From assembly GCA_963617265.1 (NCBI GenBank), contig CAVEOB010000002.1, forward strand, positions 5,215 to 69,214: a stretch of DNA of 64,000 nt. Reading direction: 5' to 3'. Each line of letters opens with the position of its first letter. The first letter of the stretch is position 1. Position numbers and translations under genes: made by a program. This DNA is from Mediterraneibacter gnavus (lineage in GTDB: Bacteria; Pseudomonadota; Alphaproteobacteria; RF32; CAG-239). Positions 2,388 through 22,198 of this stretch are shown one piece after another. The notes beneath the pieces were generated by a model. That model had not been told where the DNA came from. It saw only the letters and a list, made by a program, of their open reading frames with translations, and did not search any database.

Positions 2388-2400
2388 AAAGGCGGTTATC

Positions 2401-4755: not shown

Positions 4756-4775
4756 TGGCAGAAAAAGAGGAATAA

Positions 4776-7700
4776 ATGAGAAAGCGGCAAACATTTTTAC
4801 AAAAACTTTCAACAAAACTGCTGATACTTTGTTTAAGTGCAGGCTGCTTTGCTTTGTCTGCTGCTCCGGCTTTTTCCAGCTGCAACGGCGTTACTCCTAA
4901 ATGCAGCGCCGCCACCAACAGTGAATCGCAGGGCGGCTGCTCGCCAAACAAAACTTCAAGCGGTTCCTTAGTCGGCAGCGCTTCTCAACAAGTTAAAGCA
5001 AAATGTGTTGCCGACAAAACCAGCGGCGGGTGTTTTAACTCCGTTCCGGTCAGCAGTGTTGGCTCATACAACCGCGAAGGCGCCCGCTCCTCCACTCGAA
5101 ACCACTACGGCAGCGATTTGGGCACTGGCAAAAAAACTAACGTGCTTGCCTATGCTGCAGCTGACGGCGTTGTTATGGGCTGTTCCATATCCACTGGCGG
5201 CGGACGTACCACCGTTATCCGCCACACCAAACACTGTGACGGCGCCAGCAAAAACGGACAATATTATTCCACCATTTACCGCCATTTATTCAAACAAACA
5301 AAATGTAGCGGCGAAGTAAAAAAAGACCAAGCGATTGGTATTGTCGGCGGTTCTAACGCTTCCAGCCGCTCCGGTCCGGTCTGCGATAACCCTCTTCAAG
5401 CTAAAAATTGTTCTCATTACTATGCAATCCACCTGCACTTTGAAGTTGTTAACAGCGCTATGTCTGCAAGTTCAACTTATGTGGGCGGCAGTCAAACCAT
5501 GCAAGCGTCTTGCGGTAACCTGCAAGCCCTTTGCGGCGGCTGTCCTACCAGCACAAAGTCTTGTTTGGGCGGCATGCAAAGCTTCAGTGACGGCAATTCG
5601 GCTTCCGGCAGCGAGGTTGACGATGCCAGTATGCCTGTTGGAGCAGGCGCTCCGAACGGTGAAGAATTTGTTGACGGCAGCGGCGAGTCTTCTTGCATAC
5701 TTTCCGATTATTTGGATAAGCAAACCTGCACCACCTGCGGTATTTTCAAAACCATTTTCAACGCCGCCAGCAACCTTGCGCAAACTGCTATCAGCAAATT
5801 AGCGGTTCCCAGCAAGAATCTTGTGCTTATCGGCTTTTTAATTTGGCTTGCCATTTATGTTTTGAAACAAATTTCCTCTTTCCAAGGCGCCTCCCCTGGG
5901 GATTTGCTGAAAGGCATATTCCTGCAGGGCGCCCGCGTCGCCATTGTTGTATATATTTTATCCGGCGCGCTTTATCAGGTAATGGACATAACTTTAACCC
6001 CTGTAATGCAAACTGGCTTAACCTTTGCCAACATGCTCAACCCTAACTCCAACTGCGACAGTTCCGCCGACTATATGGGTGGTATCGTCGGCTATGACAC
6101 CGACAAGGGCATGCAGGAAACTTCTCAAGGCGGCTTGCCTCGCAACCTTGGACAATCCATTATCTGCACCATCAAAAATTTGGAAGACAGCGTCGGCGTT
6201 CTCTTGGCACTCGGCAACTATTCCACCTGCTACGCTTTTCATGACAAGGCTTTATGGGACGGCGTTATCCCGCACCTAGGCTACTTCTTGTCCGGCATGG
6301 GATTATGGCTGGTCGGCGTCTTTTTGCTCTTTGCCTTTCCATGGTGCCTGATAGACTGCATTTTGCAGCTGTGCATTGCCGCGGCGATGATTCCATGTTC
6401 TATAGCCGCTTTTGCCTTTAAATCAACGGCTAAATACCTTGGCATTATCTGGAACTTCTTTATGAACGCCATGTTCAACCTGATATTCTTAGCCGTATTG
6501 ATGTTTATTTTAACCTCTATGTTCAAAGAATGGATAGGTCTGACCGATGAATCGCTTTCCACTTTTGACCCCGTATTGCTAATCACCGCCAAAGCAAACG
6601 GGCTTGCGTGGTGGGGTGTCGGATTTTTCAAAATCTTTGCCTTTGTCTTCTTGTTTGTATGCTTTATTGATGAAGTTCCGTCTATGGCAAGCAAATTTGC
6701 AACCGGAGCCGACTTTGGTCGCCAAGGCATCGGGCGTATGGTCGGTGGTGCGGTCGCTTCAGCCGCTAAGCCGATAGCCAAAGGCGCTGGTCACATGGCT
6801 AAAAGAGGCGCGCAATCTGTTGGTGAAGCCACAAACTCGCTTGCCGGCAACTGGGTTCGCAGCAAAAAGAACCAGCTGAAAGGCATGGCTTTAGTTGCTC
6901 TCGGCGGACGCAAACTCCGCGACGCCGATGGCAATGTGGTCGGCTATCAGGCTCGTTTCAAAGGTATCCCAGGGTTTACGCAAACCCGCACCGTTACCAA
7001 AGACGCTAACGGCGTGTGGACGCAAACCAAAGAAACGCATCAAAAAACTGTTGCCGATAAAGCCTTTAAGCCAATGACCGACGCTAACGGCGAAACTACA
7101 TTTGCTGTCAGAACCAGCGGCAAAAGCGCGTTTGCCCAATATGAGCAAATGACCAAATCCGTTCAGGAAGACGGCACCGTTAAATATACCTCAAAAGACG
7201 GCAGCAGCGTTTTAGTTACCGACCCAAACGGTAATATACTTAAATATAAGCGCGCTAAAGATACGGATATGGTAACTGAAAGCCACAAAGGCAGCGTGCA
7301 AACCACCAATGACGCCTTCATGAGCAAGCGCACCATGGTTGACGCCAATGGCAAAGTAATCGGCAGCGATGTGCAGTTCAAAAACGTAAGCTCAAAATAC
7401 TTAATTAACAAAGACGGTTCAACCAATATGCACGCCTATAATCAAATTATGAACGGCGTCAGCGCCGAAAATAAAACCGACGCTATGGCGGCAATGACGG
7501 CAATGCACATAAAAGCGCGCGGTCAAAACCTCGACAGCCGTTTCAAAGACCGTAAAGTTACAATGAATAAGGACGGCAGCGTTACTATTCATCAAGTCAA
7601 CAATGACGGCAGCAAGCAAGAAATACGCGCCTCTAGGGTCAACGGTCAAATGATTATAGAAAACAAAACCACTAGCAGCAACGGCAGCATCACCCTGCAA

Positions 7701-8024
7701 AAGAGCAACGGCATGCAAAACAAAACCACATCTTTTGCTAAACAGGCTGATGGAACTTTTATTAAAACCGTAAAATACAGCTTTACCGATGAAGTCCACA
7801 GCCGCAGCCGAATTTCTCAGCCTTTAGATGAAAACGGCGCTTGGGGCTATGGTGTGGACGCGCAAAAAGCCATGGCAGGCTTTAACTCTCAAGAGTTCCA
7901 AGAACACCTTGACCAGCTGCAAGATGAAAAACTGAAGAATGGTTTGCGCAAGACCGTACTTACGGCTGAAGAACTGAAAGATATGTTAGCAGGTAAAGAT
8001 GTTAAAGGCATAGCTTCTAAATAG
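4776..8024 (+). CDS. M23/LytM peptidase domain fused to a complete VirB6/TrbL-like core with a long C-terminal extension
   Basis: 1082 aa with an AGAGGA RBS and a signal peptide. The M23 motifs HYGSDLG (HxxxD) and HLHFEV (HxH) lie at about nt 5100-5450. Motif A is IGFLIWLAIYVLKQISSFQGASPGDLL and motif B is AAMIPCSIAAFAFKSTAKY, followed by several TM helices. The last 380 aa or so are hydrophilic with recurring D-x-(N/D)-G-x turns. Confidence 0.7.
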   Translation: MRKRQTFLQKLSTKLLILCLSAGCFALSAAPAFSSCNGVTPKCSAATNSESQGGCSPNKTSSGSLVGSASQQVKAKCVADKTSGGCFNSVPVSSVGSYNREGARSSTRNHYGSDLGTGKKTNVLAYAAADGVVMGCSISTGGGRTTVIRHTKHCDGASKNGQYYSTIYRHLFKQTKCSGEVKKDQAIGIVGGSNASSRSGPVCDNPLQAKNCSHYYAIHLHFEVVNSAMSASSTYVGGSQTMQASCGNLQALCGGCPTSTKSCLGGMQSFSDGNSASGSEVDDASMPVGAGAPNGEEFVDGSGESSCILSDYLDKQTCTTCGIFKTIFNAASNLAQTAISKLAVPSKNLVLIGFLIWLAIYVLKQISSFQGASPGDLLKGIFLQGARVAIVVYILSGALYQVMDITLTPVMQTGLTFANMLNPNSNCDSSADYMGGIVGYDTDKGMQETSQGGLPRNLGQSIICTIKNLEDSVGVLLALGNYSTCYAFHDKALWDGVIPHLGYFLSGMGLWLVGVFLLFAFPWCLIDCILQLCIAAAMIPCSIAAFAFKSTAKYLGIIWNFFMNAMFNLIFLAVLMFILTSMFKEWIGLTDESLSTFDPVLLITAKANGLAWWGVGFFKIFAFVFLFVCFIDEVPSMASKFATGADFGRQGIGRMVGGAVASAAKPIAKGAGHMAKRGAQSVGEATNSLAGNWVRSKKNQLKGMALVALGGRKLRDADGNVVGYQARFKGIPGFTQTRTVTKDANGVWTQTKETHQKTVADKAFKPMTDANGETTFAVRTSGKSAFAQYEQMTKSVQEDGTVKYTSKDGSSVLVTDPNGNILKYKRAKDTDMVTESHKGSVQTTNDAFMSKRTMVDANGKVIGSDVQFKNVSSKYLINKDGSTNMHAYNQIMNGVSAENKTDAMAAMTAMHIKARGQNLDSRFKDRKVTMNKDGSVTIHQVNNDGSKQEIRASRVNGQMIIENKTTSSNGSITLQKSNGMQNKTTSFAKQADGTFIKTVKYSFTDEVHSRSRISQPLDENGAWGYGVDAQKAMAGFNSQEFQEHLDQLQDEKLKNGLRKTVLTAEELKDMLAGKDVKGIASK

Positions 8025-8206: not shown

Positions 8207-9196
8207 ATGGAGAAAGATGATATGGAAGAAATTATTTTCCCTAATCAAATCAGAATGCACAGAAGATTGCGCGGTATGTCTATGCAGGAATTGGCTGATC
8301 ATTTGGGAGTCAGCTTGTCGGCGATTTCTAAAATTGAAAAAGGTTACCGCCGTCTCAATCAAGAACAGCTGATTCAGGTTGCCGAACTTATTGACTGTTC
8401 GCTGCAAGATTTATACGTTAATGAGCAAAATTCGCAGCAAGATGTTGTCCAAGCTTGGAAACGCGAACAGGAAAGACGCTGCAAAATCAACCAAAATGCC
8501 GGTTTGAAAACTTTGGGCGCAGGTTTGCGCCACATTCGCACCGACAAAGGCTTGACTTTAATTGAAGTTGCCGAAAGCGCCGATATGACTCTGTCGGTTT
8601 ATCACCGTATAGAAATGGGACAAAGAGAAGTTTCTGACAAAGAATATCAAAATATCGCCAAAGCTTTTTCTATGCCTCTCGACAAATTGAAAGCCGAAAT
8701 CAAAAAGCTGGAAAATGAAGGCGTTTTAGAAGATATTATCGAACACAATGAAACACGCTATAAACTTTTGAACAACTCTAGATATTCTAATGTTGCTGCG
8801 CAAACCGCCAATGACGATGAAACGGCTATGCTGCCTGTTTTTGGCACCAGCAACGCCGAAGGCAATATTGTCATTGACCGCGCCAACGCCGTAAAAGAAG
8901 TTGCTTGTCCGGTGCAGCTGCAAAACAAACCGGAAGCTTATGCCGTAAATTTGTGCACCCGCCGTTTGGGTTCGCTTTTGCCAAGCCGCGCTATTTTGTT
9001 TATAGATAAAACAGAAGTTGTCAGCGCTGGCGACATTGCCTTATATTACATCAGCGAAACCGAAGCTATGCTAATCAGCGTCCGCGAAGATGAAAACGGT
9101 CAGCTTTACGGCTTGCGTTGGAATCCTGATGAACGAACAAATTTCAGCAACAGCGATTTAACAAAAATTCATAAGGTTGTGGCTATCAACTTATAA
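8207..9196 (+). CDS. XRE-family regulator with two HTH domains and a degenerate S24/LexA-like C-terminal domain
   Basis: 329 aa. HTH 1 is IRMHRRLRGMSMQELADHLGVSLSAISKIEKG and HTH 2 is LRHIRTDKGLTLIEVAESADMTLSVYHRIEMG. The C-terminus (LPVFGTSNAEGN...GDIALYY...KIHKVVAINL) aligns by eye with the LexA/CI S24 domain, but the GDSM-type Ser position reads CTRRL. An alternative start at ATG 8222 lies 9 nt after GGAG. Confidence 0.7.
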   Translation: MEKDDMEEIIFPNQIRMHRRLRGMSMQELADHLGVSLSAISKIEKGYRRLNQEQLIQVAELIDCSLQDLYVNEQNSQQDVVQAWKREQERRCKINQNAGLKTLGAGLRHIRTDKGLTLIEVAESADMTLSVYHRIEMGQREVSDKEYQNIAKAFSMPLDKLKAEIKKLENEGVLEDIIEHNETRYKLLNNSRYSNVAAQTANDDETAMLPVFGTSNAEGNIVIDRANAVKEVACPVQLQNKPEAYAVNLCTRRLGSLLPSRAILFIDKTEVVSAGDIALYYISETEAMLISVREDENGQLYGLRWNPDERTNFSNSDLTKIHKVVAINL

Positions 9197-9228: not shown

Positions 9229-9270
9229 AATTTACTCTCTCGTTTTTATAAAGCGGGAGTAAATTTTTTT
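9229..9270 (+). terminator. Rho-independent terminator
   Basis: Stem AATTTACTC(TC) 9229-9239 pairs with (GG)GAGTAAATT 9255-9265, followed by a T7 run. Confidence 0.6.
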
Positions 9271-9284
9271 AAACAGGTTTTATA

Positions 9285-10103
9285 GTGTCAGACGTAATAA
9301 GAGAAAATGATGTTGCCAGCGAAAAAGATGAAGAATATCCGATTCTTGATGCTCAGCGCTATCTAAATATTTTTCATCAAATTCACATTTTCAACGCCGA
9401 AAAAAGAGCTGAATTTGACCAATCCCTTTTGCAGATGAATGACAAAATTAAAAAGCTGCTGGTCAATATGCCGGGCGGAAAAGTTCTGCTGGAACATATA
9501 AAAGAACTTGAAGATGATGAAGAAGTTTCGGACGAAACGCTTAATCTGATTACTAAAAACATTGAAGAAGAAAAAAAATCAGCAGAAACGCATCACAAAA
9601 AACACAACATAAACGTAACCGTCGGCGAGCTGGCTATTGGCAATGAATTTGCTGAAAAGTTGGCAAACTCTTTGGTTGACGCACTCAAAAGCGCAAATCT
9701 GGCAACAAATTCCGACCTGACGCATACCATCAGCACAATTCCGCTTTTTGGTTCAACCTCGGCTGACGGCAGCCTGCTTATCAGCAAATCCACAATCCTT
9801 AGATTGGTATCCTGCCCCATTGCCTTGCAAAACAAACATTCGGTTTATGCCGTTAAACTTAACACTAATTGCGTTGGGCTGGATTTATCTGACAAAGCCA
9901 TACTTTATATTGACAAATCCGAGCTTATCGGCTCGGGTGATTTAGCGCTCTATTTTTTCAACAGAGCTGAAGCCAAACTGGTCCGGCTCTATACGGACGA
10001 ACGCGGACAATTATATGGTTTGCGCAGCAATCCCGAAGAAAAAATACTGTTTACTATCAGCAATATTGCAAAAATCCACAAAGTAGTGCTTATTGGACTA
10101 TAA
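9285..10103 (+). CDS. Hypothetical protein: unknown N-terminal domain plus S24/LexA-like domain, with no HTH
   Basis: 272 aa with a GTG start. The C-terminal ~120 aa (IPLFGSTSADGS...GDLALYF...KIHKVVLIGL) are a paralogue of the C-terminus of 8207-9196. The N-terminal ~135 aa (PILDAQRYLNIFHQIHIFNAEKRAEFDQSLL..PGGKVLLEHIKE..NIEEEKKS..FAEKLANSL) are a paralogue of the N-terminus of 10202-11296. Confidence 0.65.
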   Translation: MSDVIRENDVASEKDEEYPILDAQRYLNIFHQIHIFNAEKRAEFDQSLLQMNDKIKKLLVNMPGGKVLLEHIKELEDDEEVSDETLNLITKNIEEEKKSAETHHKKHNINVTVGELAIGNEFAEKLANSLVDALKSANLATNSDLTHTISTIPLFGSTSADGSLLISKSTILRLVSCPIALQNKHSVYAVKLNTNCVGLDLSDKAILYIDKSELIGSGDLALYFFNRAEAKLVRLYTDERGQLYGLRSNPEEKILFTISNIAKIHKVVLIGL

Positions 10104-10135
10104 TTTTTCGCTCTTACCGCCTATATTTTAACAAG

Positions 10136-10182
10136 AAATTTACTCTCTTGCTTATATATTGAAAAAGAATAAGTTGTTTTTT
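10136..10182 (+). terminator. Degenerate copy of the 9229-9270 terminator
   Basis: AAATTTACTCTCTTG is homologous to the 9229 arm. The 3' arm AGAATAAGTT pairs imperfectly (8 of 10 plus a wobble), followed by gTTTTTT. Confidence 0.35.
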
Positions 10183-10201
10183 ATGGAGTGAGGCATAACA
10201 G

Positions 10202-11296
10202 GTGGCAGAAGACTTAATTGATGATGATGTAGAATATTCCAGCAATCAGGAAGAGGAAGACCCGATTCTGGTTGCCCAGCGTTATTTAAATATTTTCCAC
10301 CAAATTCATATTTTCAATCAGGCAAAAAAAGATGAATTTGACGAGTCTCTGCTTAATATCTCGGAAAAAACCAAAGAATTGCTGGCAACACTGCCGGGCG
10401 GACGCGTTTTTTTGGAACACGTTAAAGAAGTCGAAGAAAAACAAGGTAAAAATTCCGGCGGCACCAGTGAACTAATCGCTCAAAACATCGAAGAAGAAAA
10501 AAAATCAATCGACAGCCTGAAACAACACTCCGGAAACGGCGGCGAACTTACTTTAGGTGCTGATTTTGCCGAAAGTTTAGCAAATTCTTTGGCGGCGGCG
10601 CTGCAAAGCAGCAATGCTGCGTCTAATAACAATATGACCGACTTGGCTATTTTGCTGAACAAATCGTTCAATGCCTATGCTGCCAGTATGCAAACTTTAA
10701 CCAACCGTCTTGCCGGTCAGGTTAATACCACAGCAGCGACACAGCAGCAAACCTTTTCTGCGGCGCCGGTGCAGCCTGCAGGAATGACAGCCCAGCAGCA
10801 AAACAATTCTTCGACCACTGTTAACAACATCAATATGGATACTTCCTACTTTAGTAGCATAAATCAAACGCTTATGCAAAATGATGCCCGCCGCCATGAA
10901 GATATGATGCAAATTATCGCTGCTTTGAATAAAAATATTCTGAACGGCATCTCCCCGTCAGAAAACAGCGATGGACTTGCCGCGGCATTAAATTACGGAA
11001 TACCAGCAACGGCTCTTGCCGAAGCATTGCGTCAAAACAACTCGCAGCAGCTTGAAGCCATAAAATCTTTCGGTAAAATGCTTGTGCAGGCAATCACCCA
11101 ATCACAGCAGGAATTAGCGCAGACCTTGACGCAGTCCGCACCGCGCTCTACCGTAAAAGTCGTGGTTTCGCAAGACGTTGATGTAGAAGACCAAACCGGC
11201 GGCAGTGCAGTTGTTTCTAAACAAAATACTTCTAATGCTCAGCAGCCGAAAAAGAATGAAAATAACAACGCAAAAAAAACTGAACCGATAAGTTAA
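10202..11296 (+). CDS. Hypothetical protein: the same unknown N-terminal domain plus a Gln/Asn/Ala-rich C-terminal region
   Basis: 364 aa with a GTG start 8 nt after GGAGTGAGG. The N-terminus (PILVAQRYLNIFHQIHIFNQAKKDEFDESLL..PGGRVFLEHVKE..NIEEEKKS..FAESLANSL) is paralogous to 9285-10103. There is no TM segment or signal peptide. Confidence 0.6.
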   Translation: MAEDLIDDDVEYSSNQEEEDPILVAQRYLNIFHQIHIFNQAKKDEFDESLLNISEKTKELLATLPGGRVFLEHVKEVEEKQGKNSGGTSELIAQNIEEEKKSIDSLKQHSGNGGELTLGADFAESLANSLAAALQSSNAASNNNMTDLAILLNKSFNAYAASMQTLTNRLAGQVNTTAATQQQTFSAAPVQPAGMTAQQQNNSSTTVNNINMDTSYFSSINQTLMQNDARRHEDMMQIIAALNKNILNGISPSENSDGLAAALNYGIPATALAEALRQNNSQQLEAIKSFGKMLVQAITQSQQELAQTLTQSAPRSTVKVVVSQDVDVEDQTGGSAVVSKQNTSNAQQPKKNENNNAKKTEPIS

Positions 11297-11337
11297 CTCA
11301 AAATTTCAGCAACGAGGCAAAAAACTCTTCTGACACT

Positions 11338-12654
11338 TTGCTTAGCCGCATAAATAAAAGCTTAAACAAAATTAACGACCTGAAAAATCAGAATAAAAAC
11401 GACCAGCAGCCAAACAAAAAAATTGATGAAAAAGACTCTAAAAAAGACAATTCGGCAAATGAGCATAAAAATAACGAGCCTTTAACTGCTAATCTTAAAG
11501 ACAAAGAAAAACAACCAATTGCCCCTGTTCAGCAGCCGAAACCTGCTCCCAAACCTGAACTGGTTAAAGAACAGCCGAAACCTGCTCCTAAACCTGAACC
11601 AGTTAAGGAACAACCGAAACCTGCTCCTAAACCTGAACCTGTTAAAGAGCAGCCGAAACCTGCGCCAAAGCTGGAACCGATTAAAGAGCAACCGAAACCT
11701 GCTACTAAACCTGAACCAGTTAAAGAGCAGCCAAAGCCTGCTCCCAAAGATGAACCTGTTAAAGAGCAGCCAAAACCTGCTCCTAAACCTGAACCGGTTA
11801 AAGAGCAGCCGAAACCTGCGCCAAAGCCTGAACCGATTAAAGAGCAGCCGAAACCTGCTCCAAAATCTGAACCTGTTAAGGAACAGCCGAAACCTGCTCC
11901 AAAATCTGAACCGGTTAAAGAGCAGCCTAAACCTGCGCCAAAGCCTGAACCGGTTAAAGAGCAACCGAAGCCGGCTCCCAAAGATGAAAACCTTAGTATA
12001 GAAGATATATTGGCAGCCATTCCTTCCGAAGATGACAATCCTTCTGAACCGGATATTTTCTCTGCTGATTCTTTCACCGCACCGGCTGCAGTTCAAAAAT
12101 CTGAACCAGCAAAACCTGTTGAAGCAAAAGCACCGCCTGTCAGCAAGCCTGCTGCAAATTTGCCGAAAGAACCTGAACCGCAAAACCCTGAGTATAAAAA
12201 GTCACAGCTGCATTCGTACGAAGATGCTTTGCTGAAAATCAAAAATGCGCTAAGCTCAGATGATGATATTTCCTTGGACAATATAAAGCCTATATCTTTG
12301 GGCGGTGACGATGAATTGCCGAAACCGCAAGCTCCGGCAGCGAATGCACAGCAAACTCAATCTGCCTCCGCAAAAGAAAACAATTCTACGGCAGACGACG
12401 GCGATTGGGAATATGTCGATGAAAACGGCAATCCGGTTTCCGGCGATGACGGCGATTGGGAATATGTTGACGAAAACGGCAATCCGGTTTCCGGCGATGA
12501 CGGCGATTGGGAATATGTCGATGAGAACGGCAATCCAATTTCCGGCGATGACGGCGATTGGGAATATGTCGACGAAAACGGTAATCCGGTTTCTGGTGAT
12601 GACGGCGATTGGGAATATGTCGATGAAAACGGCAATCCTATACCGCAAAATTAA
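11338..12654 (+). CDS. Tandem-repeat protein: Lys-rich N-terminus, 13-aa Pro/Lys/Glu repeats, and 17-aa acidic DGDWEYVDENGNP repeats
   Basis: 438 aa. The only candidate start is TTG 11338, because the frame opens at 11284 and contains no ATG or GTG. No convincing SD is present, so the start is uncertain. No signal peptide or TM segment is visible. Confidence 0.55.
   Translation: MLSRINKSLNKINDLKNQNKNDQQPNKKIDEKDSKKDNSANEHKNNEPLTANLKDKEKQPIAPVQQPKPAPKPELVKEQPKPAPKPEPVKEQPKPAPKPEPVKEQPKPAPKLEPIKEQPKPATKPEPVKEQPKPAPKDEPVKEQPKPAPKPEPVKEQPKPAPKPEPIKEQPKPAPKSEPVKEQPKPAPKSEPVKEQPKPAPKPEPVKEQPKPAPKDENLSIEDILAAIPSEDDNPSEPDIFSADSFTAPAAVQKSEPAKPVEAKAPPVSKPAANLPKEPEPQNPEYKKSQLHSYEDALLKIKNALSSDDDISLDNIKPISLGGDDELPKPQAPAANAQQTQSASAKENNSTADDGDWEYVDENGNPVSGDDGDWEYVDENGNPVSGDDGDWEYVDENGNPISGDDGDWEYVDENGNPVSGDDGDWEYVDENGNPIPQN
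11533..11988 (+). repeat. 39-bp coding tandem repeat, about 11.7 copies (QPKPAPKPEPVKE)
   Basis: I counted 11 full units plus a partial one directly in the sequence. The units differ mostly at synonymous third positions. Confidence 0.9.
12394..12648 (+). repeat. 51-bp coding tandem repeat, 5 copies (DDGDWEYVDENGNP[VI]SG)
   Basis: Five consecutive 51-bp units were read directly. The differences between units are mostly synonymous. Confidence 0.9.
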
Positions 12655-12723: not shown

Positions 12724-13230
12724 ATGGCAGAAGAAAATCTCGCACCAATTACCAAGGAATCTCTCTGGTATGTGGACAACTACATTGTTCTGATAGATTA
12801 TTACGACCGCACGATTTCCCGCATTGCGGCGCGTTGTATCCGCAGCGGCAATATTGCGCTTGAAGAATATAAATTTTATCCTTATGTGCTTGATGTTTTA
12901 GAAGAAATTTGTGAAACCGGCAACTATATTCTAGAACATAAAGAACTCTATCCATATATAGAAAAGAAAATCGCCGGCGGTGTTGAAGCTCTGCGTAAAA
13001 ATCTCTCTATTTATCAAGAAGAGCTGACCAGCAACCAATCGCCGGAAATGCTGCGCTCCGACCCTAACGAAGTGCAAAAAATGAATGAAGTTATGAGTAA
13101 TTTTGATAAATCGGTTGATCCAACCTCTGGTGCCGGTATGAATATAGATGATTTAATGAACAAACTTATGGCAGAAAACAACATCAGCCAACATTCTGAT
13201 AACACCGATGACGATAATCAGCAGCAATAG
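12724..13230 (+). CDS. Hypothetical acidic protein
   Basis: 168 aa with a GAGAGGA RBS. The C-terminus is acidic (DNTDDDNQQQ), there is no TM segment, and I recognise no motif. Confidence 0.5.
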   Translation: MAEENLAPITKESLWYVDNYIVLIDYYDRTISRIAARCIRSGNIALEEYKFYPYVLDVLEEICETGNYILEHKELYPYIEKKIAGGVEALRKNLSIYQEELTSNQSPEMLRSDPNEVQKMNEVMSNFDKSVDPTSGAGMNIDDLMNKLMAENNISQHSDNTDDDNQQQ

Positions 13231-13242
13231 GAACACCATAAA

Positions 13243-14580
13243 ATGAAAAAACACTTTAACACTTTCAGTTTAGTTTTAGGATTGTCCGCGCTTTTATCCG
13301 GACTTTCAGCCTGCATTGCCCGCGATGATATTGATTTTGGCGAAGACAACACCGCTGCCATAAGCGCGCAAGTTCCAGCAGAAACCGTAAATCAGCCAAC
13401 TTCAGATATAAACATTATGAAGTTTTCCAAAGAAGAGATTGTGTTTAAAGACCCTGAAGAACCGGCGATTGTACGTACTCCGGAAGGAGCCAATGCTTTG
13501 GATTTGGAAACTCCGCTGCGCTGCAATGTGAACTGGAAAACCCAGCAGATGGTGCTGACTTTGCCATATATAAACTCCGCTTTCAAACTTGAGCGAAACG
13601 GTCGCAACGACCCGCTGCCGCGCTTTGAAGTAACCGGCTACACTTTTGATATGATGCCGGCAGAGCAAGCATTGGTAAAACTCACCAAAGAAGCAGGCAT
13701 ACGCGTTTCTTCTGCCGATGGTCCATATACCAGCATTTCTGCCGAAGATTTAAAAGGCGAATTTTCGGAAGTGGTTAAAATGATTGCCGATTCGGCGGAC
13801 ATTTACACCACCTACAACGCCAAAGATAAAATTTTAACTTTAAGCCGCCGCATTAATATGACGCTATATACGCCGCCGTCTCGCCCAATTATTTTAGGCT
13901 TGCTTGACGTTATCCGCGGTGCCGGAATAACCAATATTGTAACCAACTGGGCGGATTATTCCATTACATTTGACGCCGACATTGAAACCCGCAACAAAAT
14001 TCAGGAGCTGATAAAATCATTTGAAAACAGCCCTACCCTGATAGCTTATGACGTCAGCGTATTCCGTCTTTACCCGTATATTCAGCAAGATATTGAATGG
14101 AAAGATTTGCTGAACGCCTTTGACTTTGGCTCCATCACCACAGCGCAAACCGGCGTTATTGGTCGCGTATTAACCACCACAAACGACATTTCAATAGAAA
14201 AACTGCAGCAGTTCTTAGGCAACCAAGCTCAAATTGAAATAGTTTCCGAAGGTAAATTTATTGTGCCAAACTTATGGCTTTCGCGCTTTGATATAGGCAA
14301 ATGCAGCAAACCGGAAAGCAACGCTTACGGTATGTCGGTTTTGGCTAAAGCTTCAGTCGAAAAGAAAAATGAAATCTTTTCGGATATTACCTTAGAAGAA
14401 ACCGAAGGTCAGGTTACGCAATTTAAAATCCGCAGCAAGCTTGGCGAGAACTTCTTAATTATTGGCTTGCCAAATGAACTATTCGGCATTCAAAGCCCTA
14501 AGTCTGAAACCATCATCTTTATGGTTCCGCGCCTTGTCCGCACGCTAAAAACTAACGAAACCTTGAAAAACAGAATTTAA
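13243..14580 (+). CDS. Outer-membrane lipoprotein with a secretin-like C-terminal domain (tentative)
   Basis: 445 aa with a lipobox (LSGLSA-C). The C-terminus reads IEIVSEGKFIVPNLWLSRFDIG ... GMSVLAKASVEKKNEIFSDITLEE ... FKIRSKLGENFLIIGLPNE ... SETIIFMVPRLV. By eye this follows the secretin-domain pattern (..GG.i......lvifitPrii). The lipoprotein form recalls the type IVb pilus secretins (BfpB/TcpC/PilN). No HMM confirmation. Confidence 0.4.
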   Translation: MKKHFNTFSLVLGLSALLSGLSACIARDDIDFGEDNTAAISAQVPAETVNQPTSDINIMKFSKEEIVFKDPEEPAIVRTPEGANALDLETPLRCNVNWKTQQMVLTLPYINSAFKLERNGRNDPLPRFEVTGYTFDMMPAEQALVKLTKEAGIRVSSADGPYTSISAEDLKGEFSEVVKMIADSADIYTTYNAKDKILTLSRRINMTLYTPPSRPIILGLLDVIRGAGITNIVTNWADYSITFDADIETRNKIQELIKSFENSPTLIAYDVSVFRLYPYIQQDIEWKDLLNAFDFGSITTAQTGVIGRVLTTTNDISIEKLQQFLGNQAQIEIVSEGKFIVPNLWLSRFDIGKCSKPESNAYGMSVLAKASVEKKNEIFSDITLEETEGQVTQFKIRSKLGENFLIIGLPNELFGIQSPKSETIIFMVPRLVRTLKTNETLKNRI

Positions 14581-14591
14581 CGGAGAGAAAA

Positions 14592-15194
14592 ATGGAAGAA
14601 AATCAGTTTAAAAATGCGCCTCGAAAAATCAGAAAAATCAAACGTCCGCGCGCACCTGAAAATCAGCCGGCAACCTATGGAGTTCCCGAAAAAATTTCTG
14701 TACCGCAAAATAGCCTGCAAAGCGAAACCGCCGAAAATTATTACGATGACAACGGCGATGCCGAGAATATTCATTTTATCACAGATGAAGAGTTAATGCC
14801 GCAAGAGCCGGAAACCGTAACATATTTTTTGAAAAACAAAACTGTCCTGCTAATGCTGGTATTGGCAGCGCTTTTCGGTGTTGTTTTAGGCTCTACACTG
14901 TTTTCCACCCAAGAAACGGCTAAAAAAGGTCTTGACGGCGTTGTCGTAAACTCTGATGTGCCGGTAGGACGCAGCCGCTGCGGCTTAGTTGAGCCTCACC
15001 AAGGCTGCGTGCTCTATATTATGAACCCGCGCAACCAAGAAGTAACCGGCAAAGACTTTTTTGCAACTGCTGCACAATGGACGCGCCGTGAACGCTACTT
15101 GATAGAAACCGGAAATATGCACTACAGCAGCAAGCGGATTCGCCCAGGGTATATTGCCCAAATCAACATTCCGCCTCTTTCTAACAATAACTAA
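14592..15194 (+). CDS. Bitopic membrane protein, function unknown
   Basis: 200 aa with a GGAGAG RBS. It has a basic/acidic N-terminal region, a single TM helix (VLLMLVLAALFGVVLGSTLF) and a C-terminal domain of about 100 aa. It is the last gene before a strong terminator. Confidence 0.5.
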   Translation: MEENQFKNAPRKIRKIKRPRAPENQPATYGVPEKISVPQNSLQSETAENYYDDNGDAENIHFITDEELMPQEPETVTYFLKNKTVLLMLVLAALFGVVLGSTLFSTQETAKKGLDGVVVNSDVPVGRSRCGLVEPHQGCVLYIMNPRNQEVTGKDFFATAAQWTRRERYLIETGNMHYSSKRIRPGYIAQINIPPLSNNN

Positions 15195-15204
15195 CCTAAG
15201 AACC

Positions 15205-15233
15205 AAAAGCCTCCCTTTTCGGAGGCTTTTTTT
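15205..15233. terminator. Strong rho-independent terminator
   Basis: AAAAGCCTCC-CTTTTC-GGAGGCTTTTTTT: a GC-rich 6-bp stem (15209-14 / 15221-26) flanked by an A-run and a T-run. Confidence 0.8.
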
Positions 15234-15447
15234 ACTAGTTTTCGCCGCTCTCTTAAAATACCTAAAACGTGCAGATATTTTTAGTTTAACTTTTTTAGTT
15301 TAGCTTAGATATAAATAAAAAGCCTTGTGCTGCAACTACTTGGCTTTTCCCAACCGCTCAACAGAGCTGAAAGGATAAGAAATGAGCACCACTATCAAAA
15401 TGCTAAGTATAATAATTCACTTATTTTCTCCGCCCTTTGATATTTTT

Positions 15448-16320
15448 CTATTTAACTGCTTCGGCGCCGGAAATAACATCTATCAGCTCATCGGTAATAT
15501 TTTCCTGCCGCTCCTGCTGATATTCCAAATTCATCTGTTCCAAGCTTTCATCAATATTTTTTTCAGCGTTTTGCATATTGGTCATACGCGTATAATGCTC
15601 CGCCGCCAGCGAATAATTAAGCTGACTTGCCAAAGCAATAGTTAAATATTCATTCAGCAGGGCGGCAAACATCTGCTTGCGTTCAATCGGTATCAACGGA
15701 AGATTATTTGTTCCCCATGGCTTTTCTTTCAACTTTTGATAAGCGGCAAAATCAAACGGAATAATCTGCTGTTTCTGCACGCTGACCGGTTCATTTTTAT
15801 TACGCTTATGATACCAAACGCAAACATTTGTAATCTGTTCCCTGCGCGTTGCCTCATCAATTTTCATTATCACGGTTTCGGCTATGGTATTCACCATTTT
15901 CACCGAATTTGCAACAGCGTACTTGGCATAAAGTTTTAAGTTGCTTTGCGCCGCCAAGCCGCCGATTCTTTTACCGATAGTCAAAAACAATGTATTTTTA
16001 AGCGAAACGCCTTGTTTTTTTAAATCAGCCTTGGCTTTATCCAAAATCTCTTTGTTAAACTTACCGACCATACCGTTATCGGTGCCGATTAAAATCACCA
16101 GCTGCCGGTTTGGAGCTGCTTTTATTTTATTATTCGGCAGTCCACCTTGTTTAATCAAAGCCTGAAAAGCGTCCTGCAGATTGCGGCGATATTGCGCCAG
16201 CGCCGTATTTGCCTGTTCATACTGCAAAATACTTACTGAAGACAGCGCTTTCATTGTGCCGACTATCTCCCGCAAATCCTCCGTAACCTTAATCCGCTTT
16301 TTCAACGCTTCAATCGTCAT
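15448..16320 (-). CDS. atpG: ATP synthase gamma subunit (N-type operon)
   Basis: 290 aa. The N-terminus [22 protein letters not shown] and C-terminus [15 protein letters not shown] are typical of F1 gamma. It is the last gene of the atpDCQRBEFAG order. Confidence 0.85.
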
Positions 16321-17830
16321 CAGACTTTATCCCCTCACGCTGCAAGGCTGATTTGAAAACCGAAAGCATTTTTTCCTGTGTTTCAGTCGACAGCTTCTTA
16401 CGGGCTAAAATATCGGCTACTTCTGCTGAAAATTGCGTTTGCAAAACCTCGCACACAGCTTTTTGCGCTTTCTTATTGTCTTCAGTTGCCAAACCATCAA
16501 ATAAACCAGCGTTAGTCGCCATAAACACGGCAATCTGCTCCGGCGCTGTCAGCGGCTCAAAGCGGCTTTGCTCCAGCACAGCACGAATAGCCCGCCCGCG
16601 GTTGATACGCTTTTTAGTTTCCTTATCCAGCTGGGTGCCGAATTTAGTAAACGATTCCAACTCTTCAAACTGCGAATAAAACAGTTTCAGCGGACCAATC
16701 AAAGTCTTATACGCCGGCAGCTGAGCATCTCCGCCCACGCGGGAAACCGAACGTCCGGTGTCTATCGCCGGCATAATGCCTTTTTGATACAAATTAGCCG
16801 CCAAATAAATCTGTCCGTCGGTAATAGAAATAATATTGGTCGGAATATAAGCCGATATATTTCCGGCTTCAGTCGACACTATCGGCAGCGAAGTCAGCGA
16901 ACCGCCGCCCAATTCTTCGCGCAGATGAGTCGAACGCTCCAGCAAGCGGGAATGAATGTAGAATATATCCCCCGGAAAAGCTTCTCGTCCAGGCGGACGG
17001 CGCAGCAGCAGCGACATTTCACGATAAGCACGGGCGTGGTTGGTCAAATCGTCATAAACCACCAGCACATCTTTGCCTTGCGCCATAAAATATTCGCCGA
17101 TAGATGTCGCCGCATATGGAGCTGCATATTGCATACCCGCCGTATCGTTTGCCGCAGCCGCCACCACGATTGTTTGGTTCATCACGCCGTATTTTTCCAA
17201 GTCGGCGATAACCGAAGCCACTGCGGAGTTACGCTGTCCGATAGCGCAATAAATGCAGATAACGCCGGTTTGCTTTTGATTTATAATCGTATCAACGGCA
17301 ATGGCTGTTTTACCAGTCTGCCTGTCGCCTAAAATAAGCTCGCGCTGTCCACGTCCGATAGGCGTAAACGCGTCAACCGCTTTAATCCCCGTCTGCAATG
17401 GAGTTTGCACCGGCGCTCTATCCATAATCGGATAGGCTTCCATTTCCAAAGCCCGACGCTCGCTGTAGGCTATCGGTCCTTTGCCGTCTAAAGGCTTGCC
17501 CAGCGGATTTATCACCCTGCCCAGCAATCCCTCGCCGACCGGAACGTCCAAAACACGCCCGCTGCGGCGCACTCTGTCGCCTGCTTTCAAACTATCCGGA
17601 CTGTCTAAAAACACCACGCCGACCGCATCTTTTGCCAAAGTCTGCACCATTCCCCACACGCCGTTAGGAAATTCCAGCAGTTCTTCCATTTGTGCCTTAG
17701 CCAAACCTTTTACAATCGCCGTACCGGCAGAAATAGAATGAATAACACTGACTTCCTCTGTTTTTAGCTCCGCTTTGGTTTGAGCAATTCCCTGCTCTAT
17801 GGCGGCAAATGTTTTGTCTGTTTTAATCAT
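16310..17830 (-). CDS. atpA: ATP synthase alpha subunit
   Basis: 506 aa with Walker A GDRQTGKT. Alpha-subunit-like along its whole length. Confidence 0.95.
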
Positions 17831-17833
17831 TTT

Positions 17834-18610
17834 CTATCCCCTGTTTATTAACTGCTGTACATCATTTTGCATATTCTTTTGAAACTCGTTCATATATCCC
17901 GCTAGGTTCCAGTCTATCAGCTGCTCATCAGCCTGCAAAGCCACGCCGCAAACCAGCTTTTTATCAACTTCAAATTTGAATTTTGTTTCTTCCGGCAATT
18001 CCAACTGCACCCGCAGAAAATCTTTTATTTTTTGCTTTTGTTCTGCCGAAATTTTTTGCGCCGAACGGACAAACAGCTGTTTTTTATTTTGATAAGCTGC
18101 AGCAAACTCTTGTTTTTTACGAACCGACAAAGCACTTATTTTTTCTTTGAGCTTGTCTATCATCAAATCATTCAGCGAAACATCTGCCATTTGTTTCAAC
18201 GCACCATCAGCAAGCTTGTTGAAATGTTCCAAAATCAAGTTTTGCATAGCCAGTTCAAATGTTTTCTGCTCGCCGGCTAAACGCTGTTTCCATTGGCTTT
18301 TATCAGTTTCAAACTGCGCTTTTGCCTCGTTTGCCAATTTTTCTGCCAAAACAGCGGCTTCCGCACGGGTTTGACTCAAAATATTTTGTTTCTGCGCATC
18401 AATTTCCGCCATTTTCTGCTTGCATTCCGCCTCCAAGCGCAAAGCCTCTTTATGTGAAGAAGCCGTTTTTTTCAGCTCGCGTTCAATAAACTTCTGCCGC
18501 TCGTCAACTGCTTTCAGCACCGGCAAATATAAAAAACGGCGCAGCAAATACAACAGCAGCAGCAGATTAAACATCTGAGCAAAAAATGTAAACAAATCAA
18601 TACTCATCAA
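17834..18610 (-). CDS. atpF: ATP synthase b subunit (long form; no separate delta gene in the operon)
   Basis: 258 aa with one N-terminal TM helix followed by a long charged coiled coil. Its position between atpE and atpA supports the call. Confidence 0.7.
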   Translation of the reverse strand: MMSIDLFTFFAQMFNLLLLLYLLRRFLYLPVLKAVDERQKFIERELKKTASSHKEALRLEAECKQKMAEIDAQKQNILSQTRAEAAVLAEKLANEAKAQFETDKSQWKQRLAGEQKTFELAMQNLILEHFNKLADGALKQMADVSLNDLMIDKLKEKISALSVRKKQEFAAAYQNKKQLFVRSAQKISAEQKQKIKDFLRVQLELPEETKFKFEVDKKLVCGVALQADEQLIDWNLAGYMNEFQKNMQNDVQQLINRG

Positions 18611-18627
18611 CTTTTCCTAAAATATAA

Positions 18628-18903
18628 CTATTGAGCCTGTGCAATTGCATAATTCCAAAACGGATTGGCATACAGCACCAAAAACGCAATCAGCAAAGCA
18701 TACAAAGCCGTGGTTTCCACCATGGCAATTGCCACAAACATTGTGCTGCGGATACGGCTTGCCTCGTCCGGCTGCTGCGCCATTGCCTGCAACGCCGAAG
18801 CCGCCACATGACCTTCGCCCATAGCCGAACCGATACTGCCGATACCCATACACAGGCAAGCACCCAAAACCGAAAACGCCCCAATTAAAGAAATTGCATC
18901 CAT
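18628..18903 (-). CDS. atpE: ATP synthase c subunit with Na+-type ligand set plus an extra helix-1 Glu
   Basis: 91 aa. The helix-1 motif is GEG. The helix-2 motif AMVETTALY aligns with AVAESTGIY of the I. tartaricus Na+ c-ring (E65, S/T66, T67, Y70). Confidence 0.9.
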   Translation of the reverse strand: MDAISLIGAFSVLGACLCMGIGSIGSAMGEGHVAASALQAMAQQPDEASRIRSTMFVAIAMVETTALYALLIAFLVLYANPFWNYAIAQAQ

Positions 18904-19673
18904 TATTGTTCTCCTTTTTCTAAATTTGATAAATTATTTTCCGGCACAATTTCGCCCTGCACGCTCGATGAATAAACCACCGCCAGCAAAGCAAAAATAT
19001 ATGCCTGAATTGAACCGGTTAAAAGTCCCAAACCCTGCATGCTCAGCGGAGCAATCAGCGGAATAAAAGCGCTTAAAATGCTCACAAACATAACCCCGCT
19101 CAGCATATTGCCGAACAAACGCAGACCCATGGCAAAGCTCGAGAAAAACTCACTAAAAATATTCATCGGCAGCATCAGCGGTATTGGGTCGATAAATTTC
19201 TTCAAATATCCCTTTAAGCCGGCGTTTTTAACCGAAAAATACGGTATTGCCAAAAATACAACCGCTGCCAAAGCCATAGTGGTGCTGATAGACGCCGTCG
19301 GTGCGCGGAACCACGGAATAACCGTCAGCAAATTGCAGACCAAAATAAAGCAGAACAGCCCCATGGCTAGACCTAAATATTGATTCGTTTTTGAGCCGCT
19401 TATTTCATTTGCCTCTTTTTGCAGCCACAGCACCAGCGCTTCCAGCGCCACTTGCAGCCGCGAAGCCTTACGCTCGTATGACAGATTGCGGGTGGCTAAA
19501 CGGCAGCATAAAACTATCAAAGCAATCACCAGCCAGCTGTTGAAAATTGTCACATTTATTCCGATATCGCCGATTTTAAACAGGATTATTTTGTCATAGC
19601 TATCCAGCCCGATTTGCCGTCCGGCAAGCGGAAGATCCCACCAACGCGAAAAGTCAAAATCAAACAGCGCCAT
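18903..19673 (-). CDS. atpB: ATP synthase a subunit
   Basis: Polytopic membrane protein containing the LRLFGNM motif. The ORF track starts at TTG 19703. I prefer ATG 19673 (MALFDFDF), which lies about 10 nt after GAGGAG. Confidence 0.85.
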   Translation of the reverse strand: MALFDFDFSRWWDLPLAGRQIGLDSYDKIILFKIGDIGINVTIFNSWLVIALIVLCCRLATRNLSYERKASRLQVALEALVLWLQKEANEISGSKTNQYLGLAMGLFCFILVCNLLTVIPWFRAPTASISTTMALAAVVFLAIPYFSVKNAGLKGYLKKFIDPIPLMLPMNIFSEFFSSFAMGLRLFGNMLSGVMFVSILSAFIPLIAPLSMQGLGLLTGSIQAYIFALLAVVYSSSVQGEIVPENNLSNLEKGEQ

Positions 19674-20007
19674 TGTTTTTTTGCTCCTCGTCAAATTTAA
19701 CAATCCGTCCTTTTTCGTGTATCACTATTATCATTTTAGTAACGAAAAAAACTAAAACATATAGCAAAACCACCACCGGATTGCGCTGCGCTATCAGCAC
19801 CAACACGCCGAAAAACAGCAAAATACGCATCAAAGCCACGCTTGCAAATAAACGCACTTTATGCTTGACGGCGCTTAAATGATTCAAACTCCAGCGCAGG
19901 CTCTGAAAATAAACCACGCCGACCAACGCTCCGCAAATCGGCGCCGCCAGCATCTGCCACAGCGCCATTTGCCGCCACATCTGCCACAAATAAGAATCAG
20001 CGTCCAT
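19660..20007 (-). CDS. atpR: N-ATPase accessory membrane protein AtpR
   Basis: 115 aa with three hydrophobic helices. Its position between atpQ and atpB is as in N-type ATPase operons. Confidence 0.6.
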   Translation of the reverse strand: MDADSYLWQMWRQMALWQMLAAPICGALVGVVYFQSLRWSLNHLSAVKHKVRLFASVALMRILLFFGVLVLIAQRNPVVVLLYVLVFFVTKMIIVIHEKGRIVKFDEEQKNNGAV

Positions 20008-20347
20008 TTTTTTCTCCTTGTTTTAAGCTTTCGACTGTTCTTTGCTCATTCTTTTCTATTTTCGCCTCTTCATTTTTTATCCAATAACAAGCGTTGACCA
20101 AACCCCAAACAAAGCCTAAAAACAACAAACTCAAACGCCAAGAAAAATCAGCCGGAAAATGCTCGTCCAGCCAACCGCCGCAGAAAACTCCCAGCAAAAT
20201 CGGCACAATAATCACCCCGCCCAGCGAAGCTATCATGCCAAAATTAGCATTCCAGCGCTGTTGTCTGCGGTTTTTAAGTTGCTGAGCCTTTTTAATTAGC
20301 GTGTTGCGGATTTCTTTTTCTGCCGTATCGTCAAAATCATCAGCCAT
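19997..20347 (-). CDS. atpQ: N-ATPase accessory membrane protein AtpQ (AtpZ/AtpI-like)
   Basis: A start at ATG 20347 (MADDFDD), 6 nt after AAGGAG, gives about 116 aa with two TM helices. The track ORF starting at 20389 overlaps atpC by 50 nt. Confidence 0.6.
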   Translation of the reverse strand: MADDFDDTAEKEIRNTLIKKAQQLKNRRQQRWNANFGMIASLGGVIIVPILLGVFCGGWLDEHFPADFSWRLSLLFLGFVWGLVNACYWIKNEEAKIEKNEQRTVESLKQGEKNGR

Positions 20348-20734
20348 TTTCATCTCCTTTGAGTTTGCCGAACCCGCGCACCAAGCCAAGCTCCAAACGA
20401 GCCATTGCTAAATTAAGCTCTTTGCGGCGCTCTTCATTTTCTTTAAAATCATTTCTGATAACCAGCGAAAGAGTGTCCAGCGATTTGCTGATTACGGCAT
20501 TTTGCACGCTCATAGTCACGTTCTGTCCTTTTTTGACCACAATTCCGCGGTGACAAGCCACATAACTTTCAGCATTATTTTCATCGGTATATCGCACTAT
20601 ATTCGGTTTCATCGCCGCCACAAAATCCACATGTTTCGGCATCAGTGTATAAAAGCCGTTCAACGTTTCAAACGTGACTTTCAGCGCTTTTGTCTGCAAA
20701 ACCGTCCCCAAAGGCGAACAAACCGTCAGCTGCA

Positions 20735-20735
<1 letters not shown>
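20340..20735 (-). CDS. atpC: ATP synthase epsilon subunit
   Basis: 131 aa. Size, beta-sandwich-like N-terminus and position directly after atpD support the call. Confidence 0.8.

Positions 20736-22198
<1,463 letters not shown>

Follow-up and report, generated by a model that had tools for sequence, protein, structure and literature searches.

The 64-kb window of contig CAVEOB010000002.1 analysed here (64,000 nucleotides in all) carries, at 13243-14580 on the + strand, an ATG-initiated open reading frame (ORF) for a 445-amino acid protein, J445, which is, as judged by profile alignment and by a predicted fold, a true secretin homologue, divergent and miniaturised. J445 is encoded downstream of an array of VirB6/TrbL-like genes, two of which also specify cell-wall hydrolase domains, and directly ahead of the gene for a bitopic protein of 200 residues, K200. 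To the proposal that J445, K200 and the hydrolase-bearing VirB6-like proteins form one lineage-specific envelope apparatus, taken with every step of the chain that it requires, we assign a probability of roughly one half. In type II and type III secretion, as in type IV pili and filamentous phages, the way through the outer membrane is a secretin; to our knowledge, all secretins of solved structure are gated double barrels used by recognisable ATPase-driven machines. Members of the J445 family are widely distributed among the Alphaproteobacteria of human and animal guts, where standard annotation misses them, and their conserved neighbours are VirB6-like proteins, not genes of pili or of a type II secretion system (T2SS). 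What appears to be new, on sequence evidence, is a secretin subfamily with the architecture of type IVb pilus secretins but with its gates deleted, to which standard models are blind, together with a new partner family, K200. The literature searched holds nothing relevant on the J445 family, on this combination of genes or on the secretion systems of RF32-type gut Alphaproteobacteria.

J445: secretin homology and domain architecture

The N-terminus of J445, MKKHFNTFSLVLGLSALLSGLSAC, is a signal peptide ending in the lipobox L-S-A-C (residues 1-24; 13243-13314, + strand), and the lipobox cysteine, Cys24, is shared by at least 90% of the 48 close homologues compared and by all 10 of those that are more distant. 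The existence of 902 database homologues at E ≤ 1e-3, and of relatives in 226 species-level genomes, establishes that J445 is not a chance ORF. The closest genome match, at 99% identity, is to an alphaproteobacterial metagenome-assembled genome (MAG) from a human (Hadza) gut sample; other relatives come from the guts of humans, ruminants, rabbits and birds, in MAGs that bear the labels Alphaproteobacteria, CAG:495, 'Azospirillaceae' or Candidatus Scatocola. Five contigs that are 56-98% identical to the locus (L005, L008, L010, L034 and L060) are deposited under the names of a Bacteroidaceae, Eubacteriales or Lachnospiraceae bacterium, and are probably mis-binned or mislabelled MAG contigs.

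Exhaustive searching with phmmer delimits a J445 family whose full-length members form about 50 clusters, at identities of 23-55%, and, beyond the family, yields weak matches (E 1e-10 to 1e-4) to proteins of 450-680 amino acids. All 10 of the latter that were scanned match the Pfam secretin model PF00263 above threshold, and some also match STN, Secretin_N or TcpQ; within the J445 family, 2 of 34 members give weak STN matches. Alignment by hhalign of the J445-family profile (A2) with a profile of 22 PF00263-positive type IVb pilus secretins reached by phmmer (A3) returns a probability of 100% and E 4e-41 over 336 columns, extending from the N-domains through the C-terminal 'SE..PR..R' end. The nearest solved structure to the A3 secretins is BfpB (E 5.8e-35), and the nearest models are MshL, PilN and GspD. 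The kinship is visible only through these intermediate sequences: hhalign of A2 against the single sequence of BfpB gives a probability of 4%. A remote relative of the family, a hypothetical protein of 377 amino acids, is encoded on a marine Erythrobacter aureus plasmid (NZ_CP031358.1, 408 kb; L085, 14779-15912), matches the N-domains and the first part of the secretin domain (hhalign probability 98%, E 2e-14) and is preceded by a 1304-amino acid hypothetical protein without VirB6 similarity.

An AlphaFold (AF2) model of J445 built on a diverse alignment has a predicted local distance difference test score (pLDDT) of 85.7 and a predicted template modelling score (pTM) of 0.76, and secretins or secretin N-domains make up 46 of its 47 top Foldseek matches in the PDB, among them PilQ (4.6e-9), BfpB (7.5e-9), InvG, GspD, pIV and RcpA. 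A model built with close homologues only is poor (pLDDT 55); it, too, retrieved secretins, and nothing else.

Following the signal peptide, residues 25-80 form a variable linker, disordered in the AF2 model, and residues 78-128 a conserved segment that includes the invariant Cys94. An N0-like domain (residues 129-209; 13627-13869, +) comes next; its predicted order of elements is beta-alpha-beta-beta-alpha-beta-beta-beta, its pLDDT is above 90, and Foldseek matches it to crystal structures of the N-domains of GspD, XcpQ and EscC. It is followed by an N3-like, ring-building alpha-beta-beta-alpha domain (residues 214-262; 13882-14028, +) that aligns with N3 of BfpB, minus the BfpB hairpin at 215-252. 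The remainder is a shortened secretin domain (residues 264-436; 14032-14550, +), rich in beta structure, highly conserved, carrying the invariant motif RFDIGKC (Cys354) and modelled with long, secretin-type beta-hairpins at pLDDT above 90. Cys94 and Cys354 are invariant in 34 of 34 J445-family members, and a disulfide between them might link the N-terminal segment to what is left of gate 1 (see below).

The group nearest to J445 by profile comparison, by way of intermediates whose best PDB match is BfpB, is formed by the type IVb pilus lipoprotein secretins BfpB, TcpC and PilN (BfpB, PDB 9u5s; PMC12531336, PMC12114550). J445 shares with them the lipobox, the long linker and the succession of N0, N3 and secretin domains, and likewise dispenses with the N1, N2 and S domains. 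BfpB itself consists of a lipidated linker ('LG') domain, N0, N3 and a secretin domain and lacks N1, N2 and S (PMC12531336); its outer barrel is made up of residues 307-392 and 495-545 and its inner barrel of residues 393-405, 431-460 and 480-492, with gate 1 at 406-430 and gate 2 at 461-479 (PMC12114550). When A2, A3 and BfpB are aligned with L-INS-i, J445 264-436 maps onto BfpB 307-545 with three deletions. The first, of 19 residues directly after RFDIGKC, takes out most of gate 1; the second, of about 24 residues, takes out most of gate 2 and the inner-barrel strand that follows it; the third, of 19 residues, falls within the last segment of the outer barrel. The hhalign comparison of A2 with A3 has gaps of 19, 22 and 17 columns at the same three positions. 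Thus, J445 appears to be without both gate hairpins, to the accuracy with which alignments at ~10-20% identity can place them. J445 differs from this group further in having no direct match to PF00263 or TIGR02520, and its N3 is without the BfpB hairpin. It differs from the bfp system in its surroundings, with no bundlin or other pilin, no BfpD/E-type ATPase or platform protein and no prepilin peptidase encoded near it.

An earlier note on this DNA had pointed to the lipobox, had read the C-terminal domain as secretin-like from the rhythm of a few quoted peptides, and had taken the middle of the protein for a secretin N-domain. The lipobox is there (LSAC) and is conserved, the peptides are all found in the J445 translation, the C-terminal assignment agrees with both the profile and the fold comparisons, and the middle of the protein resolves into the N0-like and N3-like pair. 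The note's remark that the C-terminal domain is shorter than that of classical secretins is also borne out: it has 173 amino acids to the 239 of BfpB, about 66 fewer, and the shortfall falls at the gate hairpins. It had suggested scanning with secretin models and predicting the fold; the scans gave no match, and the predicted fold is secretin-like.

The secretin of filamentous phages, pIV (PDB 7ofh), is a compact protein of ~400 amino acids with only N0, N3 and a secretin domain, as in J445, and is matched by Foldseek at E 3.4e-5. It is not a lipoprotein, it retains both gates, and its partner is the phage pI/pXI ATPase complex. An origin from a prophage or filamentous phage was considered and dropped: a viral fold library gave few matches, all of pIV type and including f1 pIV, and there are no phage genes at the locus.

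K200, the VirB6-like array and their linkage to J445

The region 12724-15233 is made up of three co-directional ORFs, I168, J445 and K200, followed by a hairpin and T run. The gene for K200 (14592-15194, +) begins 11 nt past the stop codon of J445, and hydropathy shows one hydrophobic segment in the protein, at residues ~84-104. An alignment of 21 homologues shows a basic motif, RKIRKIKRP, on the cytoplasmic side, a variable Q/P-rich linker, the one transmembrane segment, and a conserved periplasmic domain of ~95 amino acids with two invariant cysteines, C130 and C139. A profile search finds 502 homologues in the protein database, all of them unnamed, and no relative in Pfam, NCBIfam or, by profile search, the PDB. 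The topology of K200 (cytoplasmic N-terminus, one transmembrane segment, small periplasmic domain) and the position of its gene next to that of a secretin are those of the connectors GspC, PilP and BfpC, and the bfp operon has the same arrangement, with the gene for the bitopic inner-membrane protein BfpC following bfpB. In contrast with those connectors, K200 has no detectable sequence similarity to any known family; by hhalign it is unlike a TcpQ-domain protein, secretin profiles, BfpG, BfpC, BfpU and BfpL, and unlike the proteins encoded after classical type IVb pilus secretins. The N0-like periplasmic partner of type IVb pili (BfpG/TcpQ) was not found either, and the locus has no match to the TcpQ domain. 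K200 is, on its topology and linkage, the putative inner-membrane connector of J445.

The operon is closed by an intrinsic-terminator-like hairpin and T run (15205-15233, +), GC-rich, with stem AAAAGCCTCC, loop CTTTTC and stem GGAGGCTTTT. The earlier note had called it the strongest terminator of the locus; the element is present, its rank being a reading of the sequence, and a scanner for consensus terminators did not list it. The spacing and the single transmembrane segment of the next protein were as the note described them. Its stretch also covers a 168-amino acid ORF that it did not discuss, I168 (12724-13230, +), encoding a small acidic, soluble protein directly upstream of J445 without a Pfam or NCBIfam match. 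In distant loci I168 is the C-terminal part of a protein of 580-707 amino acids, as in the fusions of L089 and L090.

The upstream array occupies the beginning of the window, entirely on the + strand. A460 (479-1861) begins with a signal peptide of lipoprotein type, behind which lies a polytopic core, VirB6/TrbL-like, with ~5 transmembrane segments by hydropathy. B180 (1845-2387) has a signal peptide and the N-terminal half of a VirB6-like module, with its Cys motif and first transmembrane segments, and C791 (2380-4755) has a signal peptide, a SleB-type hydrolase domain, the C-terminal half of a VirB6-like module and a low-complexity tail. In D1082 (4776-8024), a signal peptide and an M23 peptidase-like domain precede a complete VirB6-like module, beyond which the C-terminus is extended by ~380 amino acids. 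None of the four matches PF04610, the TrbL/VirB6 model, directly, and the only direct Pfam matches among them are those of the hydrolase domains in C791 and D1082: C791 to PF07486 (Hydrolase_2, E 1.1e-13) and D1082 to PF01551 (Peptidase_M23, E 9.5e-6) at 26.2 bits, slightly below the 28.7-bit cut-off. PF01551 is listed for D1082 orthologues in precomputed tables.

The identity of the array comes from a related contig, L003, which extends the window upstream and contributes two further VirB6-like paralogues. One of them, a protein of 653 amino acids (L003, 1766-3727) encoded 110 bp upstream of the window start, matches PF04610 at 31.5 bits against a cut-off of 25.9 (E 1.9e-7). By BLASTP it matches D1082 at E 6e-32 over 429 residues, C791 at E 1e-13 over the C-terminal half, and A460 at E 2e-5; many of its own homologues have PF04610 in the precomputed tables, and one is named as a type IV secretion system (T4SS) protein. 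A460, C791, D1082 and the upstream paralogues all have a signal peptide followed by 5-6 transmembrane segments on a crude hydropathy measure. The upstream ORFs, which the earlier note had called VirB6-like, are in these comparisons VirB6/TrbL paralogues. A profile of the VirB6-like paralogues has no match in the PDB, and tblastn of the TrbL-positive paralogue has none in 72,556 plasmids.

In relatives, the array runs in the order ~300-amino acid protein, VirB6-like protein, ~100-amino acid protein with two transmembrane segments, TrbL-positive VirB6-like protein, A460, B180, C791 (hydrolase) and D1082 (M23). B180 aligns only with the N-terminal half of its paralogues and stands before C791 in related loci; the two ORFs overlap, one VirB6-like module appears to be split between them, and the split is kept in relatives. 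The C-terminal extension of D1082 (residues ~700-1082) consists of short NG/DG-rich repeats of beta type, and its length differs greatly from species to species, the whole proteins ranging from 884 to 1607 amino acids. The longest of these, at 120-4943 of L001, bears a faint RHS_repeat annotation.

For the survey of linkage, 103 related loci were searched by tblastn with the proteins of the window, the denominators given here being the loci with enough flank. A K200 homologue starts within 700 bp downstream of the secretin gene in 93 of 93 loci, including those whose secretins are 30-33% identical to J445, and I168 is present in 93 of 95. VirB6-like ORFs and the gene for a two-helix-turn-helix (HTH) regulator lie near the secretin in 70 of the 73 loci that have at least 7 kb of upstream flank. 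The array remains linked in the distant loci L088-L092, whose secretins share 30-33% identity with J445, and despite the rearranged gene order of L097 and L102; weak TrbL matches (E 5e-4 and 4e-3) come from two ORFs upstream in L088.

Arrays of enlarged VirB6/TrbL-like proteins with N- and C-terminal extensions are also a feature of another alphaproteobacterial system, the Rvh T4SS of Rickettsiales. There, the VirB6 array follows virB3-virB4, and VirB7, VirB9 and VirB10 cross the outer membrane. Here, in contrast, no virB4 adjoins the array, cell-wall hydrolases are joined to two of the paralogues, one module seems to be divided between two ORFs, and a secretin module follows. Co-location of T4SS genes with the gene of a lipoprotein secretin is seen in IncI (R64-type) and related conjugative elements, which combine a T4SS with a PilN-secretin thin pilus. 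In those elements, the secretin serves a complete type IVb pilus with its own ATPase and platform, beside the T4SS and not as part of it, whereas the window retains VirB6-like genes and a secretin only.

The nearest classical relatives of J445 are found in type IVb pilus operons, in L111 and L113 together with T4SS genes. In L112 the order is secretin, 178-amino acid protein, T2SSE; in L111 the secretin lies beside genes for TrbI, CagX-TcpQ, T2SSE and T2SSF; on a Rhodoferax plasmid of type MOBH/MPF_T (L113) the order is secretin, hypothetical protein, ATPase, GspF. These loci make a conjugative element with a T4SS and a thin pilus a plausible ancestor; we infer that J445 derives from type IVb pilus lipoprotein secretins and that the locus keeps the VirB6-like genes and a reduced secretin module. 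The metagenomic T4SS/type IVb pilus locus L111 also displays an unusual spread of the TcpQ module: its CagX (VirB9) protein and its secretin (119-1447 and 10001-11851) both have a TcpQ domain, and two more TcpQ-domain proteins follow.

A proposed lineage-specific envelope apparatus and its alternatives

The apparatus to which we give about even odds would be put together as follows. J445 would be lipidated at Cys24, sorted to the outer membrane and multimerised there into a ring, with N0 and N3 hanging into the periplasm. K200 would be its dedicated inner-membrane partner, with a periplasmic domain that docks on the periplasmic part of J445 in the manner of GspC, PilP and BfpC, the two of them constituting the outer-membrane and periplasmic part of an envelope-spanning apparatus specific to this lineage. 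The VirB6/TrbL-like array would supply the inner-membrane part, and two array proteins bring peptidoglycan hydrolases of their own, which could breach the cell wall to let the apparatus assemble. G364, H438 and I168, the soluble repeat proteins, would be candidates for cargo or scaffold, and E329 would be the local regulator. The ancestor would have been a conjugative element possessing both a T4SS and a type IVb thin pilus, as in the nearest classical relatives.

The more ambitious form of this proposal is that gut Alphaproteobacteria have a new machine in which a secretin-derived ring replaces VirB7, VirB9 and VirB10 over a T4SS-type inner-membrane platform equipped with hydrolases; it is tentative, with the odds against it. 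A VirB6 platform joined to a secretin ring would, if true, be categorically new. If the two modules cooperate, type IV secretion components could exit the outer membrane through a secretin, a boundary used in the classification of secretion systems would be blurred, and one would have to ask how a secretin with no gate, or with a gate of another kind, is kept closed. A ring without canonical gates may be closed by some other element, such as the N-terminal segment around Cys94, opposite Cys354 at the deleted gate 1. The conservative reading still provides a new secretin subfamily, a new partner family, and names for 'hypothetical' genes of an uncultured gut lineage.

A number of observations weigh against the apparatus, and the alternatives draw on several of them. 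Direct scans of J445 give no Pfam or NCBIfam match at E ≤ 1, PF00263 and the NCBIfam secretin models included; none of 34 diverse family members matches PF00263 at E ≤ 0.1; and neither phmmer with J445 nor the family profile finds a secretin among PDB sequences. Foldseek TM-scores are low (0.13-0.22), as is to be expected of a comparison of a free monomer model with chains from assembled rings, and the evidence from the predicted fold is local, not global. The deletion of most of gate 1 and gate 2 and of part of the inner barrel, as placed by the alignments, means that a normal gated pore is not assured. J445 could then be a secretin-derived ring or scaffold of the periplasm or outer membrane that no longer exports through a gated channel, for instance a tether of the outer membrane to hydrolase-bearing proteins in wall remodelling. 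The blindness of secretin hidden Markov models to the family, the placing of the three deletions (at gate 1, at gate 2 with the adjacent inner strand, and at the last outer-barrel segment), the fusion of neighbouring proteins to SleB-type and M23-type cell-wall hydrolases, and a locus with neither an ATPase nor an evident secreted cargo would all suit such a role. We nevertheless consider it improbable: what is left of the C-terminal domain is highly conserved and is modelled with secretin-type long hairpins at high pLDDT, the N0-N3 architecture of channel-forming secretins is kept, and the deletions themselves are mapped from alignments of very low identity.

The other points that weigh against the apparatus concern the joining of its two halves. 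The regulator gene and a terminator-like hairpin stand between the array and the secretin module. In three loci (L046, L074 and L098) the G/I-secretin-K200 module has no VirB6-like array within 10 kb, and in L087 the array is followed by fabZ-lpxD-bamA, without an adjoining secretin module. These four loci define (G/H/I)-J445-K200 as the minimal invariant unit; the tie of secretin to array is strong without being obligatory. Relatedness among the genomes compared accounts for part of the conserved synteny. No gene for VirB4, VirB7-11, VirD4, a relaxase, a pilus ATPase, a platform protein or a pilin was found within 10 kb in any relative examined, in a search that did not take in whole genomes; the proposed machine has no known energy source, and whatever might power it is not encoded in the locus. 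It is possible, at odds well short of even, that two independent systems are adjacent by descent, the array belonging to a dispersed Rvh-like T4SS and J445 and K200 to a pilus, a T2SS-like or a DNA-uptake machine encoded elsewhere. Known secretins all serve T2SSs, type III secretion systems, type IV pili or phage machinery, and none serves VirB6. A scattering of T4SS genes, with tandem VirB6 paralogues, is established for Rickettsiales (PMC7648143). Against such a division stand the linkage itself, at 70 of 73 loci, down to 30-33% secretin identity and through rearrangement of gene order, and the failure to find the partners that it calls for: neither the 64-kb window nor the 10 kb around the locus in the relatives examined contains a pilus, T2SS or other T4SS gene. 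More particularly, the locus has no Walker A and no prepilin motif; no T2SSE, T2SSF, pilin or prepilin-peptidase gene is found in the locus, the window or up to 10 kb in relatives, whole genomes not having been searched; and the 10 kb on either side in L003, L086 and L087 contain no VirB4 or other T4SS core gene, the rest of those genomes again lying outside the search. Another reading would make the locus the decaying residue of a filamentous prophage or an integrated conjugative element, with no present function; it might be encouraged by the finding of the nearest classical relatives on conjugative elements, by the phage-repressor-type HTH regulator and by the failure to find transfer ATPases, relaxase and pilins near the locus. 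This reading is very hard to credit for a locus in which every ORF is intact, whose order and sequence are kept in at least 80 species-level genomes with relatives in 226, whose Cys pairs and motifs are invariant, and which has no integrase, no tRNA junction and no anomaly of GC content.

Other genes of the locus and of the window

Between the array and the I168-J445-K200 group lie four genes, all on the + strand. E329 (8207-9196) encodes the regulator, with two HTH domains of Cro/C1 type (PF01381, HTH_3, E 1.7e-24 over two stretches) and a C-terminal domain of no known family. The hairpin that follows it (9237-9259, +) has a 10-bp stem and a T run, and is terminator-like as a consensus match only. 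F272 (9285-10103) has its N-terminal domain in common with G364 and its C-terminal domain in common with E329, as seen in the translations and in tblastn cross-matches, and has no Pfam or NCBIfam match. The C-terminal domain common to E329 and F272 measures ~110 amino acids; it had seemed LexA/S24-like by eye, an assignment that was dropped when a PDB sequence search gave it no support.

G364 (10202-11296) encodes a soluble, Q/N-rich protein to which no function is assigned; it has neither a transmembrane segment nor a signal peptide by hydropathy and no usable Pfam or NCBIfam match. H438 (11338-12654) encodes a soluble repeat protein, with PKPAPKPEPVKEQ repeats and DGDWEYVDENGNPVSGD repeats and only fragmentary WW- or MORN-type matches in Pfam. 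The former are specified by an in-frame tandem array at 11531-11982 (39 bp x 11.6) and the latter by one at 12389-12638 (51 bp x 4.9). H438 is without a signal peptide, is weakly conserved across species, and is absent or unrecognisable in many loci. In one of the loci without a nearby array, L098, the secretin module is flanked by two giant ORFs, at 686-6169 and 15405-21020 (1827 and 1871 amino acids).

From 15.4 to 64 kb the window is occupied by chromosomal housekeeping genes, including the ATP synthase operon, lnt, ybeY, phoH, miaB, folD, ftsI, mraW, holA and leuS, and the locus is thus chromosomal, not plasmid-borne. Three genes at 33159-36049, for a VWA-domain protein, a PP2C phosphatase and a Ser/Thr protein kinase, have no relation to the secretin locus. 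The ATP synthase operon (15448-22156, - strand) adjoins the secretin module only in the closest relatives. Its orthologue in L001 includes AtpR and ATPase_gene1, in the order beta, epsilon, gene1, AtpR, a, c, b, alpha, gamma, a layout known for N-type (Na+-translocating-like) ATPases.

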